From the NCBI GenBank assembly GCA_046731735.1, contig JBKPLP010000168.1:389-64388 (forward strand): a stretch of DNA of 64,000 nucleotides. The letters run 5' to 3'. The notes below the pieces were generated by a model, which saw only the letters and a program-made list of their open reading frames with translations, was not told the DNA's origin and ran no database searches. Shown one piece after another: positions 35,524 through 60,000 of this stretch. The DNA comes from Acidobacteriota bacterium (GTDB lineage Bacteria; Acidobacteriota; Vicinamibacteria; Vicinamibacterales; 2-12-FULL-66-21). The translations under genes were made by a program, and so were the position numbers. The first letter of the stretch is position 1. Each line of letters starts with the position of its first letter.

Positions 35524-41503
<5,980 letters not shown>

Positions 41504-48372: not shown

Positions 48373-49425
48373 TTACTCGACGAACACCTGCACCTTGCGC
48401 GGCGTGAGGTACACGCGATCGCCGGGCTGCACGCCGAGCTTTTCGAACTTTTCGCGGGGCATCTCGGCGTGGATCAAACCGCCATGCGCGCCGGCGAGCT
48501 CGAGCCGGACGGTCGCGCCGAGGCGCGTGACTTCCTCGAGCACGCCCCAGAGTCCTGACCCGGTGTCGGTACGCGACACGTCGAACTCGTGCGGGCGGGT
48601 ATAGGCCGAGGCCGTACGCGGTTCAGCGCCAGGATGCACGGGATATTCGACCGCGAGCGGCCCGAAGAAGCCGCGGCCGCCCTCCACCCGACCCTGGAAG
48701 ATGTTGACGGTGCCGAGAAAGCTGATGACGAACGGCGTGGCGGGATGATCGAGGACCTGCTCGGGCGTTCCCTCCTGCTCGATCGCTCCGCGATTCATGA
48801 TCGCCACGCGATCGGACACTTCGAGCGCTTCCTCCTGGTCGTGCGTCACGAAGACGCTGGTGAGATGGATGTCGTCGTGCAGCCGCCGCAGCCAGCGGCG
48901 GAGCTCCTGCCGCACGCGCGCGTCGAGCGCGCCGAACGGCTCATCGAGCAGGAGCACTTTCGGTTCCACCGCGAGCGCCCGCGCCAGGGCGATGCGCTGG
49001 CGTTGCCCGCCCGACAGCTCGGACGGACGCCGGTCGGCGAGGAAATCGAGCTGCACGAGCTCGAGCAGGTCGTGCACGCGGCGCCGGATATCCGATTCAG
49101 ACGGACGGAACTGCCGCGGGCGCACGCGGAGGCCGAACGCCACGTTCTCGAACACCGACATGTGACGGAAGAGCGCGTAGTGCTGGAAGACGAATCCGAC
49201 GCGGCGCTCGCGTGCGTTGCGCGAAGTCGCGTCTTCCCCCTCGAGCAGCACCGTCCCGGCATCCGCCTCTTCGAGTCCGGCAATGATGCGCAGCAGCGTC
49301 GTCTTGCCGCAACCCGATGGCCCGAGCAGCGCGACGAGCTCGCCCGATGCGACCTTGAGGTTCACGTCGTTCACCGCCACGAACCGGCCGAAGCGCTTCG
49401 TCAGGCCGCGGATTTCGATTGCCAT
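48373..49425 (-). CDS. cysA: Sulfate/thiosulfate ABC transporter ATP-binding protein
   Basis: Walker [10 protein letters not shown], signature LSGGQRQR, Walker B LLLDEPF, C-terminal TOBE-like region. ATG 49425 overlaps the cysW end by 25 nt. Confidence 0.9.
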
Positions 49426-50282
49426 GGTTCGTCGTGTTCGGAAACAGCCGTCCGCGCGCGGACTCGCCGCTCGAGCGCGGCCTTCACGATCAAGGTGACG
49501 ATCGCCAGGCAGCCGAGCAGCGAGGCGACCGCGAACGCTGCCTGCGCGTTGTATTCGTTGTAGAGAATCTCCACGTGCAGCGGCAGCGTATTCGTCACGC
49601 CTCGGATGTGTCCCGAGACGACCGATACCGCACCGAACTCTCCCATGGCGCGCGCGTTCGCGAGAATGACGCCATACAGCAGTCCCCACTTGATGTTCGG
49701 CAGCGTGACGCGGAGAAACATCTGAAGTCCGCCCGCCCCGAGGACGCGCGCGGCCTCCTCCTCTTCCGTCCCCGTCGCTTCCATGATTGGAATGATCTCG
49801 CGCGCGACGAACGGGAACGATACGAAAATCGTCGCCAGGATGATCCCCGGGACGGCGAAGACCACCTTCATACCATGATCGATCATCCAGCCGCCGAGCC
49901 AGCCGCGCCGGCCGAAGAGCAACACGAACACCAAGCCGGAGATTACCGGCGAGACGGCAAACGGCAGATCGATCAGCGTCGTCAAGAGATGACGGCCGGG
50001 AAACTGGAACTTGCCGATGGCCCAGCCGGCGGCGACGCCGAAGACGACATTCAGCGGCACGGCAACCGCCGCGGCCAGCAGCGTCAGCCGGAGCGCCGCC
50101 AGCGCATCCGGCTCGACGATCGCCACGCGGTACGCTTCCCATCCCTTCGCGAATGCTTCCCCGAACACGGCGATCAGCGGGACGACGAGAAAGAGCGCAA
50201 TGAACAGGAATGCGATCGCCGTGATGGTCCACCGGACCACCGCCGGCTCCGTCAGGTGTCCTTTCTTGAGCGGCCCGCTCAT
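49401..50282 (-). CDS. cysW: Sulfate ABC transporter permease
   Basis: Six-TM ABC permease with an EAA-like loop ([16 protein letters not shown]). ATG 50282 overlaps the cysT stop (ATGA). Confidence 0.85.
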
Positions 50283-51109
50283 CCGGTGACTCGTCTTCGC
50301 GTCCACGCCTGCAGGCCGTTGATGGCCAACAGCAGCGCGAACGACAGCCCCAGCATGATGAGCGCGATCGCCGTCGCACCGGCGTAATCGTATTGCTCGA
50401 GCTTGGTCATGATCAGCAGCGGAGCAATTTCGGTCCGCATCGGCATGTTGCCGGAGATGAACACCACCGAGCCGTACTCGCCAATCGCGCGCGCGAACGC
50501 CAGCGCGAACCCGGTCAGCCAGGCGGGCAGCAGGTTCGGCAGCACCACGCGCCAGAGCACCGCGGCGCGCCGCGCGCCGAGGCTGGTTGCGGCTTCCTCG
50601 ACGTCAGGATCGAGATCCTCGATCACCGGCTGCAGGGTACGGACGACGAACGGCATCCCGATGAACACGAGCGCCACGGTGATGCCGGTGCGCGTGAAGG
50701 CGACATCGATGCCGTGCCGCGCGAGCGGCGCTCCCAGCCACCCGCCCGGCGCATACAACGTGGTCAAGACGATTCCGGCGACCGCCGTCGGCAGCGCGAA
50801 CGGCAAATCGATCAGCGCGTCGACGATGCGACGTCCGGGAAAGCTGTAGCGCGCCAACATCCACGCGACGAGCGAGCCGAAGACCGCGTTGATGGCCGCG
50901 GCCACGAAGGAGGCGCCGAGACTCAATTGATACGAGGCGACGACGCGGGGATCCAGGATGGTCGCACGGAACGCCTCCCACGACATCGTCAGCGCCGTCG
51001 CCGGCAGCGTCGCGAGCGGGATCAGGACGACGAGGCTCAGGTACAAGACGGTGACGCCCATCGTCAGTCCGAAACCGGGGAGCACGCGGCGGCGGCCGGA
51101 TCCCTTCAT
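50279..51109 (-). CDS. cysT: Sulfate ABC transporter permease
   Basis: Six-TM permease with an EAA loop ([18 protein letters not shown]). ATG overlaps the sbp stop (ATGA). Confidence 0.85.
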
Positions 51110-52110
51110 CGCGTTCCAGGACGATAGATCTGATCGAACACGCCGCCGTCGGCGAAATGCGTCTTCTGCGCCTTCTGCCAGCCGCCGAATACTTCGTCGA
51201 TCGTGAACAGATTGAGTTTCGTAAAGGTGGCGGCGTACTTCGCCGCGATGTTCGGATCGCGCGGGCGATAGTGGCGTTTCGCGGCGATCTCCTGGCCTTC
51301 CGGCGAGTAGAGGTATTGCAGATATCCTTCAGCCGCCGCCCGGGTGCCGTGGCGATCGACGACTTTGTCGACGACCGCCACCGGCGGCTCGGCAAGGATG
51401 CTCACCGGCGGTGTGACGATCTCCAGCTGACCGGGCGATTCCTGCAGCGCGAGGTACGCCTCGTTTTCCCACGCGAGCAATACGTCCCCGAGTCGTCGCT
51501 GGGCGAAGGTAATCGTCGAGCCTCGCGCGCCGGAGTCGAGCACGGGCACTTTCTTATAGAGCTCGGTGACGAACTCGCGCGCTTTCTGCTCCGATCCGCC
51601 AGGCTGGCGCAGCGCGGCCCCCCAGGCCGCGAGGTAATTCCACCGCGCGCCGCCCGATGTCTTTGGATTTGCCGTGATGATCTGGATGCCGGGGCGTGCG
51701 AGATCGGACCACGTTTTGATGGCTTTCGGGTTCCCCTTCCGCACCACGAAGACGACCGTCGACGTGTAGGGCGAGCTGTTGTTGGGCAGCCGCTTCTGCC
51801 AGGCGGCGTTCAGCAACCCTGCCTGCGCAATCGCGTCGACGTCGTAGGCAAGCGCGAGCGTGACCACGTCCGCGTCGAGTCCCTCGATCACCGCCCGTGC
51901 CTGCGCGCCGGAACCGCCATGGGACTGCTTGATGCTGATGGTCTGGCCGGTTTTTGCTTTCCAGTAGCGCGCGAACGCCGCGTTGAAGTCCTGATACAGC
52001 TCGCGGGTCGGGTCGTAGGAGGCATTGAGCAGGGTCTGAGCAGCGCTCGGGATCACGGTAATGGCGGAGAGTGCAAGCGCGGCGGCGACGGTCCGGGTCA
52101 GCGAAGTCAT
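51106..52110 (-). CDS. sbp: Sulfate-binding periplasmic protein
   Basis: [42 protein letters not shown].. is typical of Sbp/CysP. Signal peptide starts at ATG 52110. Confidence 0.9.
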
Positions 52111-52121
52111 GTGGCAGATCC

Positions 52122-53336
52122 TCAAAACGCAAGCTGCATACGCAGAATGATGACGTTCTCGCTGGGCCGCACGACGTTGCCTCCATCGAAGGAGGTGTGT
52201 TCGTACGTGATGTAGTACTTGATTGGGGTGGCGGGGTACCAGTTCGCGCCGACGGCCCACGCCTTTGCGTCGGCGCTCGCGGTCGGCGCCGCGAGGCCGC
52301 GCACGAACACGAGTGGATCGACGTGCAGCTCTGAATAGCGCGCGACCAGCTGCAGCGCGCCCCACAGCCCCGCATTCGGGTCGAACGAACGCGTCGGCCG
52401 GACACCGCGATCCGATGCCGGCTCGCCGGTCAGGATGTAGGACGCGCTCACCTCCCATCCGTCATTGGTGACGGAGTCCGTGCGCGACTCGCGCGACACG
52501 TCCTGGGTGGTGCGCATGTATTCGGCGAACGTGCCGAAACCCTTGTAGTAGTAAAAGACCGCGGGCGTCACACGGCGGCGATCACCCGCGGCGGCGCTGG
52601 CCGCGGCGTAGGAAAAGTACGGCTGCCCGACCGATGTTCTGAAGACCGGCAGCGCGCCCGCCTGTGAGCCGATCGATCCACCGAGATGAAACCCGAGGCC
52701 GCTCGCGGCGTGACGGGCGGCAGCGCTCGTTCTGAACGGTTGCCAGGTAAGGCGCCCGGCAAGATCCTTCGAGTGATTGACGTCGATATCCGTGGTTGAA
52801 CTGACGCCGTCCGGAACACCGTTGAACACCCCGGCGGCGTAGGTCAGCCGCGGCGTAATCTCGCCGATCGCCTGAAACCCGATGTCTCGATTCGGCATCA
52901 GACCGGAAGCAATCGGCCGCTCAGGGAAGAGCAGGTATGGGTCTCCCTGCAGCAGTTCGTAGCCAACCGGCGTTTTATCCTTGCCGGCACGAACGCGGAA
53001 TACCTGGGAGAACCGCATATCGACGTACGCGTCGAGCAGCGCCGCCGTCCCGTTGCCAAAATCCGGCATCACTTTGAACTCGAAATACTTCGCGACGCGG
53101 CCCGAGAGGGTGGGACGGGCTTTGCGAATCGTGAACGTATTGATAATCGGCTGCGGATCGTCGAGCGAAAAGCGGCCGTCGACCTGCCCGGTCAGGCCGA
53201 GCACGAGCCGGTTGTCGCCGTTCGCCGATTGCACGACAAACCCATCCTGCCACCCTGCGGTGAACGGCGTGGAAGTCGTTTGCGCTGCGGCGGCCGCCGG
53301 AACCGTGACGAGCGCCAGGACCACGAGATGCCTCAA
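52122..53336 (-). CDS. OprO/OprP-like anion-selective outer-membrane porin. Start uncertain (TTG 53336 proposed)
   Basis: [31 protein letters not shown]....[12 protein letters not shown] and a C-terminal aromatic residue (..QLAF). A signal peptide follows the proposed start. Confidence 0.8.
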
Positions 53337-53393
53337 CCAGGACCGTCCTTTGCTGCAATTTCCTTCAATGAATCTCAGTCGCGCTTTCAGGAC

Positions 53394-53431
53394 AAAAAAA
53401 AGGCCCGGAAGCGTTGAACTCCCGGGCCTTT
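53394..53431 (-). terminator. Canonical intrinsic terminator in the 5' leader of the porin-sulfate cluster: GGCCCGGGAG-ttcaacg-CTTCCGGGCC followed by T8 (minus strand)
   Basis: 10-bp stem (one G.U), 7-nt loop and an 8-T run, counted directly. It is flanked by A3 upstream, so it could be bidirectional. Confidence 0.75.
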
Positions 53432-53464
53432 CGAGCTGTTTTTGCGCGTGTAGAAATAAGACGA

Positions 53465-53518
53465 TTACACTGGCAGGCGCAGCACGGGGACCGGAGCTTC
53501 CCCCGGACAACAACACAT
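53465..53518 (-). CDS. Candidate leader peptide sORF MCCCPGEAPVPVLRLPV (extendable in frame to ATG 53539: MVAMAARMCCC..)
   Basis: ATG TGT TGT TGT CCG GGG GAA GCT CCG GTC CCC GTG CTG CGC CTG CCA GTG TAA, read base by base on the minus strand. It lies 36 nt upstream of the terminator stem. No clear SD. Confidence 0.45.
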   Translation of the reverse strand: MCCCPGEAPVPVLRLPV

Positions 53519-54530
53519 GCGCGCCGCCATGGCAACCATCGCTCTTCTTATGTCACACCGGCTTCGCGCGGGTCAAGGGGGGCCGTTCGCGGTGGCCCTG
53601 GCGGCGGCGATCGCAGCCGGCGCGGTGCTCGGCGGCGGCGCGCTGGATGGAGCCGCGAATCAGCCGCCGCAGCGGGCTCCGCGCGCGCTGCGATCGAGCA
53701 TCGAGCTGACCGCCGTGACCGTTACCGTCCGCGACAACCAAGGGCATCTCGTCCCCGACTTGCCGGCCGACGCGTTCACGATCTTCGAAGACGGCGAACC
53801 CCAGACGATCACGCAGTACGCGCACGAACGGGTGCCCGTTGGAGTCGGGCTGCTCCTCGACACCAGCGACAGCATGTTCGGCCAGCGCATCAAGGACGCG
53901 CGCGCTGCGGTCGAGCGCTTTCTCCTGGAGCTGCTGTCGCCAGACGACTCGCTCTTCGTCATGACGTTCAACCATGAACCGCACGTACTGATCTCGTGGA
54001 CGCCTCCCGCTGAAGCGGCCGCGGTGCGCTCGGCGCTCGATACGCTGCGGCCTTTTGGCGGAACGGCGGTGTACGACGCGGTGATGCACGCGCTGACCAT
54101 CATGGATCATCGTCCCCGCGACCGCGCGGCGATCGTCATCATCTCCGACGGCGCAGACACCGCGAGCGACACCACGCTGCGCGACCTCAGGTCGGCGCTG
54201 CTGCGTGCCGATGCCTTCGTCTACGCCGTCGCGATCGACTCGCCAGACCGGCAGGCGATCAACGCGCGCGTCAACGCGGAGGCACTCGGCGAAATCACCG
54301 GGCAGACCGGGGGCAGCACCGAGGTCGTCCGGACGACCGCGGATCTCGCCGCCGCCACGGCGCGCATCGCGGAGGAACTGAATACGCAGTACGTGCTGGG
54401 TTACTCGTCGCCGCACCCGGGCGACGGGAAGTACCACAGCATCAGGGTGAAGGTGAACCGCGAGGGCTATCGTGCGCGTTCACGGAACGGCTACATCTCC
54501 GTGCCGATGAGAAGAACCGGGTCGCGCTGA
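53517..54530 (+). CDS. VWFA-related Acidobacterial-type von Willebrand factor A protein (paralogue of 30568..31533)
   Basis: SSIELTAVTVTVRDNQGHLVPDLPADAFTIFEDGEPQ N-domain and MIDAS DTSDSM. An alternative ATG at 53529 is possible. Confidence 0.85.
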   Translation: MRAAMATIALLMSHRLRAGQGGPFAVALAAAIAAGAVLGGGALDGAANQPPQRAPRALRSSIELTAVTVTVRDNQGHLVPDLPADAFTIFEDGEPQTITQYAHERVPVGVGLLLDTSDSMFGQRIKDARAAVERFLLELLSPDDSLFVMTFNHEPHVLISWTPPAEAAAVRSALDTLRPFGGTAVYDAVMHALTIMDHRPRDRAAIVIISDGADTASDTTLRDLRSALLRADAFVYAVAIDSPDRQAINARVNAEALGEITGQTGGSTEVVRTTADLAAATARIAEELNTQYVLGYSSPHPGDGKYHSIRVKVNREGYRARSRNGYISVPMRRTGSR

Positions 54531-57598: not shown

Positions 57599-58594
57599 TT
57601 AGGAGCTATTCTCCGTGGCCTCCGTGGCCTCTGAGTGACTACCAGCAGCGACCGCCTGTGCGAACGGACCCGGATCGATATTCGCCCCCGTCAGCACCAC
57701 CGCGACATTTCGTCCGCGCAGGGCATCGCGCTCCTTCAGAGCCGCGGCAAGCGCTGCCGCGCCCGCCCCCTCGACCGCATTGTGCGTATCCGAGAACAGC
57801 GCCGCAATCGCGCGCTCGATCTCGTCGTCCGTCACCTCGACGATGTGATCGACCCCGTGCTTGATCGTGTCGAGAGCCTCCGGGTTGGGCGTCCGGCAGG
57901 CCATGCCGTCGGCGATCCGCGTCGTGACCTCATGGGACAGCAGGCGTCCAGCCTCGAGGGAACGGGCGACGGCCGGCGCCGAAGCAGAAACCACGCCAAC
58001 GATTCGCGTCCTCAGGCTGAGCGCATCGCGCGCCGCAATGGCGCCGCAAATCCCCGACCCGAGCCCTATGGGCACATACAGCACGTCGATATCCGGAACC
58101 GCACGCAGCAATTCGAGCGAATAGGACGCGACGCCGTGGACGAGGAGCTCGTGGAACGACGGCACCATGTGCCAGCCGCGCTCGGTCGCGATATCCGCAC
58201 TTGCTTCCAGCGCCGCCTGAAAATCGTGACCGCGCTCGATCAGCTCCGCGCCGAGCGCGCGCATGGCGGCGTTCTTCGTGACGCTGTTGCCGTGCGGTAC
58301 CACGATGGCGGCGGGAATGCCGTAGCGCGCCGCCGCGAACGCCACCGACTGCCCGTGATTGCCGCGGGTCGCCGCGACCACCCCCGTGACGCCGCCCTGC
58401 GTCCGCCTGAGGTGGTCGAAGTAGACGAGACCGCCGCGGACCTTGAACGCGCCGACCGGCGTCTGGTTCTCGTGTTTCACCCAGACGGTCGTGCCGCAGC
58501 GTGCGTCGAGCAGCGGCCAGCGCTGCTGCGGCGTCGGGGGCATCGCCGCGTAGACGACGCGCGACGCGGCATCGAGTTGCGAAAGCGTGGTCAT
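57599..58594 (-). CDS. Threonine/serine dehydratase-family PLP enzyme (no ACT domain), 331 aa
   Basis: GAFKVRGG (PLP Lys), ATRGNHGQS, GLGSGICG. ATG 58594 chosen within the longer ORF. Confidence 0.85.
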   Translation of the reverse strand: MTTLSQLDAASRVVYAAMPPTPQQRWPLLDARCGTTVWVKHENQTPVGAFKVRGGLVYFDHLRRTQGGVTGVVAATRGNHGQSVAFAAARYGIPAAIVVPHGNSVTKNAAMRALGAELIERGHDFQAALEASADIATERGWHMVPSFHELLVHGVASYSLELLRAVPDIDVLYVPIGLGSGICGAIAARDALSLRTRIVGVVSASAPAVARSLEAGRLLSHEVTTRIADGMACRTPNPEALDTIKHGVDHIVEVTDDEIERAIAALFSDTHNAVEGAGAAALAAALKERDALRGRNVAVVLTGANIDPGPFAQAVAAGSHSEATEATENSS

Positions 58595-58653
58595 TCGATC
58601 GTCCGCCGTCCCGAGTATTACCGAGGACCGATTATGATGTAGGGTCCAAATAG

Positions 58654-60000
<1,347 letters not shown>

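Follow-up and report, generated by a model that had tools for sequence, protein, structure and literature searches.

The locus studied here raises the question what a short, cysteine-coding open reading frame followed by a transcription terminator is doing directly in front of a sulfate uptake operon. It lies in a 64-kb stretch of DNA from an Acidobacteriota bacterium of the Vicinamibacterales (hereafter the window), of which both strands (128 kb) were examined, and is found on the minus strand between a divergent gene for a VWA protein and a porin gene. A sequence-only reading of this stretch had proposed a cysteine-sensing attenuator, made up of a Cys-Cys-Cys short open reading frame (sORF), a hairpin behind the Cys codons and an intrinsic terminator, upstream of a porin-sbp-cysTWA sulfate cluster. 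All three parts are present in the sequence, and profile matches to Porin_O_P, a sulfate-binding protein, CysT, CysW and CysA confirm the nature of the cluster. We conclude that this is a real, conserved cis-regulatory element. With a probability of about three in four, it is a ribosome-mediated (leader-peptide) transcription attenuator that reads the level of charged tRNA-Cys and thereby sets the read-through into porin-sbp-cysTWA, a reading supported by the fact that the operon (a porin and a sulfate ATP-binding cassette (ABC) importer) supplies sulfur for cysteine.

The leader unit and its conservation upstream of the porin

Starting from 1120 homologues of the porin, 41 genome loci (almost all from metagenome-assembled genomes of Vicinamibacterales) and 80 metagenome loci were compared over about ±3 kb around each porin gene. 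The whole leader unit, consisting of promoter boxes, start codon, Cys run, hairpin, stop codon window and terminator, is kept ahead of the porin in 30 distinct orthologous sequences (the core loci), always immediately 5' of the porin and in the same orientation. Conservation of the sORF and the hairpin at orthologous loci, on which the sequence-only reading had made its proposal depend, is thus borne out around the porin in 30 sequences. The porins of these loci are 55-90% identical, whereas TGTTGTTGTCCGG is invariant among them, third codon positions included.

The consensus of the core loci begins with cTTGAC(c/g), N18, (TG)aCATAA(G/A/C), N7 and ATG. Behind the ATG follow seven codons, TGT TGT TGT, CCGG-loop-CCGG and TCC, then CGCGCTG, a short spacer, GCCTGTCC and TGTGA (which holds the stop codon), and finally GGATAGGC, a short spacer, CAGYTCGA, AGGCCCGGAAG-loop-CTTCCGGGCC and T6-9. 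The motif CAGYTCGA (box I) is kept directly 5' of the terminator, and the terminator itself is kept in all core loci. Upstream of the sORF, conservation is limited to the two promoter hexamers, of which the spacing is also kept, with TGTGACATAA in the -10 region being nearly invariant over the 30 sequences; beyond the -35 box the sequence is entirely unconserved. It was by sequence comparison alone, and not by a consensus scan, that the promoter was recognised.

A chance origin of the leader element is ruled out, since TGTTGTTGT occurs only twice on both strands of the 64-kb window, with the other copy running antisense in an open reading frame (ORF), and since the sORF together with the terminator recurs 5' of orthologous porins in 30 sequences. 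The view that three adjacent Cys codons at this position are unlikely to be accidental has therefore held. The second TGTTGTTGT run (40857-40865, minus strand), located inside an 870-aa plus-strand ORF (38891-41503), is a chance match and not a second leader. A scan of the whole window against Rfam yielded no family at its gathering score; the leader region (E <= 10) gave sub-threshold matches only, near the element, to Thr_leader (RF00506, 22.2 bits versus a gathering score of 55) and to Trp_leader (RF00513, 17.0 bits versus 41).

The reading frame of the leader is well kept around the Cys codons. The start codon is ATG in 26 and GTG in four of the 30 sequences, exactly eight codons precede the Cys run in 28 of them (one locus differs by an in-frame 3-nt deletion), and in 20/30 the sORF counts exactly 24 codons, indels in the hairpin loop being offset by indels in the GCTG..GCC segment. 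Variants with a net +1 shift end at a second conserved TAG/TAA, about 9 nt downstream and out of frame. In the window, the codons from 53539 onwards are ATG GTT GCC ATG GCG GCG CGC ATG, followed by the three TGT codons, and the stop codon TAA is at 53467-53465. A start at 53518 with a possible extension had been put forward earlier; the in-frame ATGs at 53530 and 53539 do exist besides that at 53518 (53518-53516), and it is the ATG at 53539 that is the conserved start (24 codons), the ATG at 53518 being confined to the closest relatives of the window and replaced by GCG elsewhere. No Shine-Dalgarno (SD) sequence is found ahead of the leader sORF, where the -10-like box ends 7 nt before the ATG. 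Because of this short promoter-AUG distance, the sORF is probably leaderless or nearly so.

The encoded peptide is conserved just as ..(C)ACCCP(E/G).., with a fourth Cys two codons before the run in 16/30 orthologues. The residues beyond vary freely, including those encoded by the hairpin (P2), and the C-terminal half even changes frame among orthologues, which indicates that the constraint is on the Cys codons, the reading frame and the RNA, and not on a functional peptide. Selection appears to act on the Cys codons rather than on a motif, as a second sub-family of unrelated sequence (see below) indicates. All tandem Cys codons of the 30 core sequences are TGT (90/90 positions), while nine genes of the window together use TGC 12 times and TGT four times; such use of the rare codon is consistent with slow wobble decoding that sharpens the sensor.

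The terminator of the window, GAAAGGCCCGGGAG-ttcaacg-CTTCCGGGCCTTTT with eight T in all, is located 34 nt past the sORF stop codon, has a stem of 15 pairs (8 of them GC in the terminator scan) and folds at -21.3 kcal/mol. Its T-run is separated from the porin start by a spacer of 57 nt without promoter box; the distance is as had been proposed (about 57 nt), with the start codon being a TTG at 53336, one base off the proposed 53337. Also among the core loci, the stretch of about 30-70 nt that leads from the last terminator to the start codon of the porin, which has a GGAG-type SD, holds no conserved promoter box, so that expression of the operon depends on read-through. The long terminator-porin spacers initially apparent in some loci are an artefact of the onset of the tblastn match, the real start codon with its SD lying within the same 30-70 nt. 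At a single locus (L065), an insertion of about 200 nt, rich in palindromic GC repeats (gtagcgcagccc...gggctgc...), lies between the terminator and the start of the porin; it may be a repetitive extragenic palindromic (REP)-like or a miniature mobile element.

Eight loci (L002, L003, L004, L031, L032, L047, L049 and L051) carry two terminators in tandem (T1 and T2), about 40 nt apart. In all eight, the 3' arm of T1 is complementary to the 5' arm of T2 (-10 to -18 kcal/mol), and in this model an antiterminated T1 could in turn block T2 and relay the decision. The coordinates of the leader parts and of the operon genes in the window are collected in Table 1.

Table 1. Leader element and downstream operon in the window, with the evidence for each feature
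Feature	Position	Strand	Evidence or remark
-35-like box TTGACC of the leader promoter	53571..53576	-	cTTGAC(c/g) at a fixed distance in 29/29 core loci with enough upstream sequence
Extended -10-like box TG-a-CATAAG	53547..53555 (CATAAG 53552-53547)	-	Spacers of 18 nt to the -35 box and of 7 nt to the sORF ATG
Leader sORF MVAMAARMCCCPGEAPVPVLRLPV, 24 codons + TAA	53465..53539	-	ORF listing and orthologue comparison
Three tandem Cys codons TGT TGT TGT (regulatory codons)	53507..53515	-	Invariant in 30/30 orthologues
Hairpin P2 (segment 1 : segment 2), CCGGGG-gaag-CTCCGG, directly 3' of the Cys codons	53491..53506	-	CCGG/CCGG core invariant
Segment 2, putative antiterminator 5' half: box D (CTCCGGTCC), box E (CCGTGCTGC) and box F (GCCTGCC)	53472..53498	-	Pairs with 53417-53438 in nascent folds with the ribosome on Cys2/Cys3
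Segment 3: box I (CAGCTCGA) and terminator 5' arm (AAGGCCCGGGAG)	53417..53438	-	Pairs with segment 2 or with the terminator 3' arm
Intrinsic terminator, stem 53432-53398, loop TTCAACG, T8 at 53401-53394	53394..53432	-	Terminator scan and conservation
OprO/OprP-family porin, first structural gene, TTG start at 53336	52122..53336	-	Pfam Porin_O_P, E = 8.5e-26
sbp, sulfate-binding protein	~51106-52110	-	NCBIfam, E = 1.4e-151; start approximate, from onset of profile match
cysT	50279-51109	-	NCBIfam CysT, E = 1.1e-118
cysW	49401-50306	-	NCBIfam CysW, E = 1.7e-118
cysA	48373 to ~49425	-	NCBIfam CysA, E = 1.8e-122; start approximate, from onset of profile match

Alternative RNA structures and the proposed switch

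The consensus structure of the 30 sequences (RNAalifold) contains the terminator, the CCGG hairpin P2 and an enclosing helix, P1, formed by pairing of GCGCGUGU (which takes in the first Cys codon) with CGCGCUG..GC. The 4-bp core of P2 is invariant, and the fifth pair of this hairpin is AU in 11, GU in 6 and GC in 3 sequences. A different picture was obtained with nascent folds, in which the transcript ends at the terminator loop and a ribosome is placed on Cys2 or Cys3. Nearly all 30 sequences then form one long hairpin of three helices, D:terminator 5' arm, E:I and F:H, in which the terminator 5' arm finds its partners at leader nt ~44-52. For the window, this involves pairing of AGCUCCGG.CC (53498-53488) with GG.CC(G)GGGAGU (53428-53417). 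The proposed pairing of the 3' half of P2 with the 5' arm of the terminator is thus what these folds return, and two further conserved helices come with it. In this register of the putative antiterminator 88% of the alignment cells are paired, a share that falls to 21-49% if the 3' partner is shifted by 1-3 columns.

The spacing of the parts fits the proposed switch. A ribosome that holds one of the three Cys codons in its A site would cover the 5' arm of P2 (nt 34-39) and leave box D (nt ~44-52) exposed, and the stop codon is always located in the loop of the F:H helix, where a ribosome would cover boxes E and F. We infer that transcription would start from the conserved promoter TTGACC-N18-CATAAG, ending 7 nt before the sORF AUG, that the sORF is translated and that the two hairpins compete kinetically. 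When Cys-tRNA is plentiful, the ribosome would pass UGU-UGU-UGU and reach the stop codon, and with boxes E and F covered the antiterminator would not be assembled, so that the terminator hairpin would form and transcription would stop at the U8 tract. Under a shortage of Cys-tRNA, the ribosome would stall on the Cys codons and cover the 5' arm of P2 (CCGGGG), leaving the 3' arm free. The freed box D, together with boxes E and F, would then pair with boxes H and I and the terminator 5' arm as the polymerase releases them, and with the 5' arm captured before the 3' arm is made, RNA polymerase would read through into the porin gene.

Several observations weigh against this mechanism. Equilibrium folds of the full transcript with the ribosome footprint masked over the Cys codons, a check that the sequence-only reading had itself proposed, keep the terminator in 14/14 orthologues whose construct reached it (the L002 construct stands outside this count, as an internal T-run ended it before the terminator), and taken literally the outcome of that check is negative. 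In the window, the antiterminated fold is about 13 kcal/mol less stable than the terminated one. The terminator 5' arm is often paired in truncated transcripts with no ribosome or with the ribosome at the stop codon as well, and the states are therefore not cleanly separated. Covariation is of little help: in the antiterminator it is uninformative (3 pairs with double changes, the same as in shuffles, the columns being nearly invariant) and in P2 it is modest, 10/30 sequences having the 4-bp core alone. Moreover, the invariance of TGTTGTTGTCCGG could come from a constraint at the RNA or DNA level and not from codon choice, complementarity between T1 and T2 is expected of any near-duplicate terminators, and the -10-like hexamer CATAAG does not have the T expected at position 6, which is why a generic sigma-70 promoter scan gave no match. 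Because the antiterminator is weaker than the terminator, the switch must act kinetically, by trapping the 5' arm. Also in the trp attenuator of E. coli the antiterminator is weaker than the terminator at equilibrium.

Other Cys-codon leaders and rival explanations

Leaders with Cys codons were found upstream of the porin outside the core family as well; in the other sub-families the tandem run counts three to five Cys codons, TGT and TGC replacing each other. A second sub-family, ..CCCC(C)RG.., is located ahead of the porin at L005, L006, L052/L053 and L082 and has four to five tandem Cys codons with TGT/TGC synonymous differences among them, in a sequence unrelated to that of the core family. 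A perfect TTGACA-N18-TAnAAn promoter precedes the sORF at L006, L052/L053 and L082; all four have a terminator and none has a VWA neighbour. L006, with the CCCCC variant, belongs to a metagenome-assembled genome of Luteitalea. The alternative pairing follows the same 1-2-3-4 topology as in the core leader: at L005, for instance, UGCCUCCGG can pair with the CGGGGCA that directly follows the Cys run or, without a mismatch, with the 5' arm of the terminator, CCGGAGGCA. The leaders of a third family, which precede the porin at many of the remaining loci, encode a conserved peptide, M(T/S)SF..CC..C.....CRCAC.VPT.., of which 5-9 out of about 28 aa are Cys. They come with a TTGACA box of their own and are located about 250-500 nt 5' of the porin match at L012, L014, L015, L021, L025, L074, L079, L085, L100 and L114. 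No intrinsic terminator was detected for this family, which hints at a further, different output mechanism. Among 28 loci without a CCC run, Cys-rich sORFs were present on the porin strand in 13/28 and on the opposite strand in 0/28. The CCC runs in TGC codons at L039, L089, L090, L094 and L095 were set aside, being probably out-of-frame readings of CTG-rich signal-peptide or otherwise GC-rich sequence.

The core family and the two other leader families share one feature only, a short ORF before the sulfate uptake cluster in which Cys codons form a run or cluster. That unrelated leaders have just this in common is the strongest argument for the Cys codons being the sensor. We consider it fairly likely that Vicinamibacteria evolved leaderless Cys-codon sensor ORFs before the porin/sulfate ABC operon at least two times, possibly three, with two of the versions using a full terminator/antiterminator switch, which at some loci includes a two-terminator relay.

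Other explanations of the core element have to be weighed against attenuation. The Cys codons might be a true sensor with another output (translation initiation, mRNA stability or access of Rho), the terminator then being a constitutive partial dampener. The only experimentally characterised polycysteine sORFs indeed unmask a ribosome-binding site and have no terminator (10.1101/834739), the third family at related loci combines a Cys-rich sORF with no detectable terminator, and the antiterminator is weak and without covariation support. Nevertheless, this is unlikely, since a terminator is found in every member of both the core and the CCCC(C)RG sub-families, since in both, despite their unrelated sequences, its 5' arm is complementary to the segment that a Cys-stalled ribosome would free, and since the SD region of the porin is only weakly paired in the unconstrained minimum free energy fold of the window leader. 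The same conserved pairing bears on the possibility of a stand-alone small gene or small RNA (sRNA), encoding a Cys-rich micropeptide or acting in trans, with the porin operon expressed independently. Its own promoter-like boxes and its strong terminator, at times two in tandem and favoured at equilibrium, would suit such a gene, and a precedent exists in Sinorhizobium, where both attenuator RNAs, once released, and leader peptides are able to work in trans (PMC6614838, PMC7298713). In that case, however, nothing would account for the conservation of box I or of the match between box D and the terminator arm, the 30-70 nt before the porin start would be expected to hold a promoter box, of which no conserved one is present, and the constant position directly 5' of the porin in the same orientation would be unexplained; with a peptide kept just at ..ACCCP.. 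and a C-terminal half that shifts frame, a functional micropeptide is unlikely, and we regard the explanation as a whole as quite improbable.

The invariance of TGTTGTTGTCCGG over 30 loci with much more divergent porins, and the conserved helices that flank it, could also point to a structured RNA that binds a ligand or a protein (a riboswitch or the target of a regulator), with UGUUGUUGUCCGG as recognition motif and translation irrelevant. The start codon, frame and stop window are maintained, however, no Rfam family matches the window at its gathering score, and the other two families have nothing but the Cys codons in a short ORF in common with the core leader, which makes this very unlikely. 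Finally, the conserved block could be the 5' end or regulatory region of the divergent plus-strand VWA gene and the minus-strand ORF incidental, as the TGTGACAT box is the complement of ATGTCACA, which opens the VWA ORF (MSHR...) in the window and its closest relatives, and as a VWA gene lies upstream in all core loci with enough flank. We rejected this reading, which is hardly credible. The ORF opened by ATGTCACA has the length of a VWA protein (184-348 aa) in only 8/29 loci; in 16 it stops at 5-31 codons, in two at 84-101, and in three the contig ends within it. Conservation of its pseudo-peptide MSH....GQ is confined to the residues that mirror the -10 and -35 boxes, it is the porin strand that carries the T-run of the terminator, and in the CCCC(C)RG sub-family the same architecture is seen without a VWA neighbour.

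Relation to known attenuators and neighbouring genes

Leader-peptide attenuation is textbook knowledge for Trp, His, Thr, Phe, Leu and Ile/Val. The element described here resembles the trpL, hisL, thrL, pheL, leuL and ilvL attenuators of Proteobacteria in having a short leader ORF with tandem cognate codons followed by an intrinsic terminator, and, as predicted here, in having an alternative hairpin that can sequester the terminator 5' arm depending on the position of the ribosome, in front of an operon that supplies the amino acid in question. It differs from them in that the amino acid is cysteine and the phylum Acidobacteriota, in that the sORF is apparently leaderless, without SD and with the promoter abutting the AUG, and in that an outer-membrane porin and a sulfate importer are controlled instead of biosynthetic enzymes. 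There is no sequence homology (22 bits versus a gathering score of 55 bits).

The closest precedent is found in mycobacteria, for which polycysteine attenuators had correctly been mentioned in the sequence-only reading: leaderless polycysteine sORFs (e.g. Ms5788A, of the 'Cys ribulon') act there as cysteine-responsive attenuators (Canestrari et al. 2020, 10.1101/834739). In that system, stalled ribosomes disrupt a duplex that hides a downstream ribosome-binding site, a mode of action that the authors contrast with terminator-type attenuators (10.1101/834739). Shared features are a short ORF with at least two consecutive Cys codons at the extreme 5' end of a cysteine/sulfur operon, stalling at low Cys-tRNA as the proposed sensor, a layout that is likely leaderless in both, and the presence of several independently evolved versions inside one clade. 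The characterised mycobacterial element controls translation with no intrinsic terminator involved, whereas the leader of the core loci has a strong conserved intrinsic terminator and a predicted alternative pairing directed at it; there is no sequence similarity and the phylum is another. The element in the window would sense like the mycobacterial sORFs and is not a member of their family, given the strong conserved terminator and the weakly paired SD region of the porin.

For Mycobacterium, Propionibacterium and Bifidobacterium, Seliverstov et al. (2005, PMC1262725) likewise predicted leader peptides with Cys runs before cys and cbs genes, stating explicitly that terminator hairpins are lacking, and a leaderless 10-aa leader with two Cys was predicted for cysS of Deinococcus deserti (PMC4007540). 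These too are computationally predicted short ORFs with Cys codons before cys, cbs or cysS, but none controls a sulfate transporter or a porin, and that of D. deserti precedes a tRNA synthetase gene. Naville and Gautheret (PMC2965389) remarked that hardly any of the attenuators predicted in Acidobacteria has an assigned function. We found no Cys leader with an intrinsic terminator, in Acidobacteriota or before a sulfate transporter in the literature searched, in agreement with the earlier impression that none was known from this phylum or ahead of such a cluster, although many papers in subscription journals were beyond the scope of the search and absence from it is no proof. Points that appear to be new are the terminator-based form, the phylum, the porin-transporter target, the exclusive use of UGU and the existence of at least two independently built versions.

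If the proposed mechanism is correct, cysteine would gain its first classical transcription attenuator, and the Acidobacteriota their first described leader-peptide attenuator. Cysteine attenuation has so far been shown solely as a translational device in mycobacteria, and a terminator-based form would fill that gap. It would also be the first mechanistically interpretable cis-regulator for this abundant and poorly cultured soil phylum. Testable design features are the restriction to the rare UGU codon, the probably leaderless layout and the putative relay of tandem terminators, and a compact element of 150 nt could serve as a cysteine-responsive genetic part.

The attenuator would furthermore tie a dedicated OprO/P-type porin to sulfate acquisition, and so help the annotation of 'phosphate-selective' porins. 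Since the porin gene of Vicinamibacterales opens an operon for a sulfate ABC transporter and stands behind a Cys-codon leader, its product is more likely a sulfate or anion porin than a phosphate-selective one. In the source annotations, the porin and its 1120 homologues are commonly labelled 'phosphate-selective'.

The genes of the importer, sbp-cysTWA, together span 48373..52110 on the minus strand. About 4 kb from the sulfate cluster lies a gene for a pyridoxal phosphate-dependent enzyme of the PALP family (57599-58786, minus strand), to which cysteine synthase and cystathionine beta-synthase also belong; the sequence ahead of this gene showed no run of tandem Cys codons. Of the divergent genes, one encodes a VWA protein of the Acidobacteria type (TIGR03436) and the other an ADOP permease. 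The VWA ORF, on the plus strand, extends without a stop as far back as ATGs at 53517, 53529 and 53550, so that its first codons overlap the start of the leader sORF and the -10 and -35 boxes (region 53517-53600). Its N-terminus MSH..GQ mirrors the boxes of the leader promoter, and in most orthologues the ORF is 5-31 codons long.

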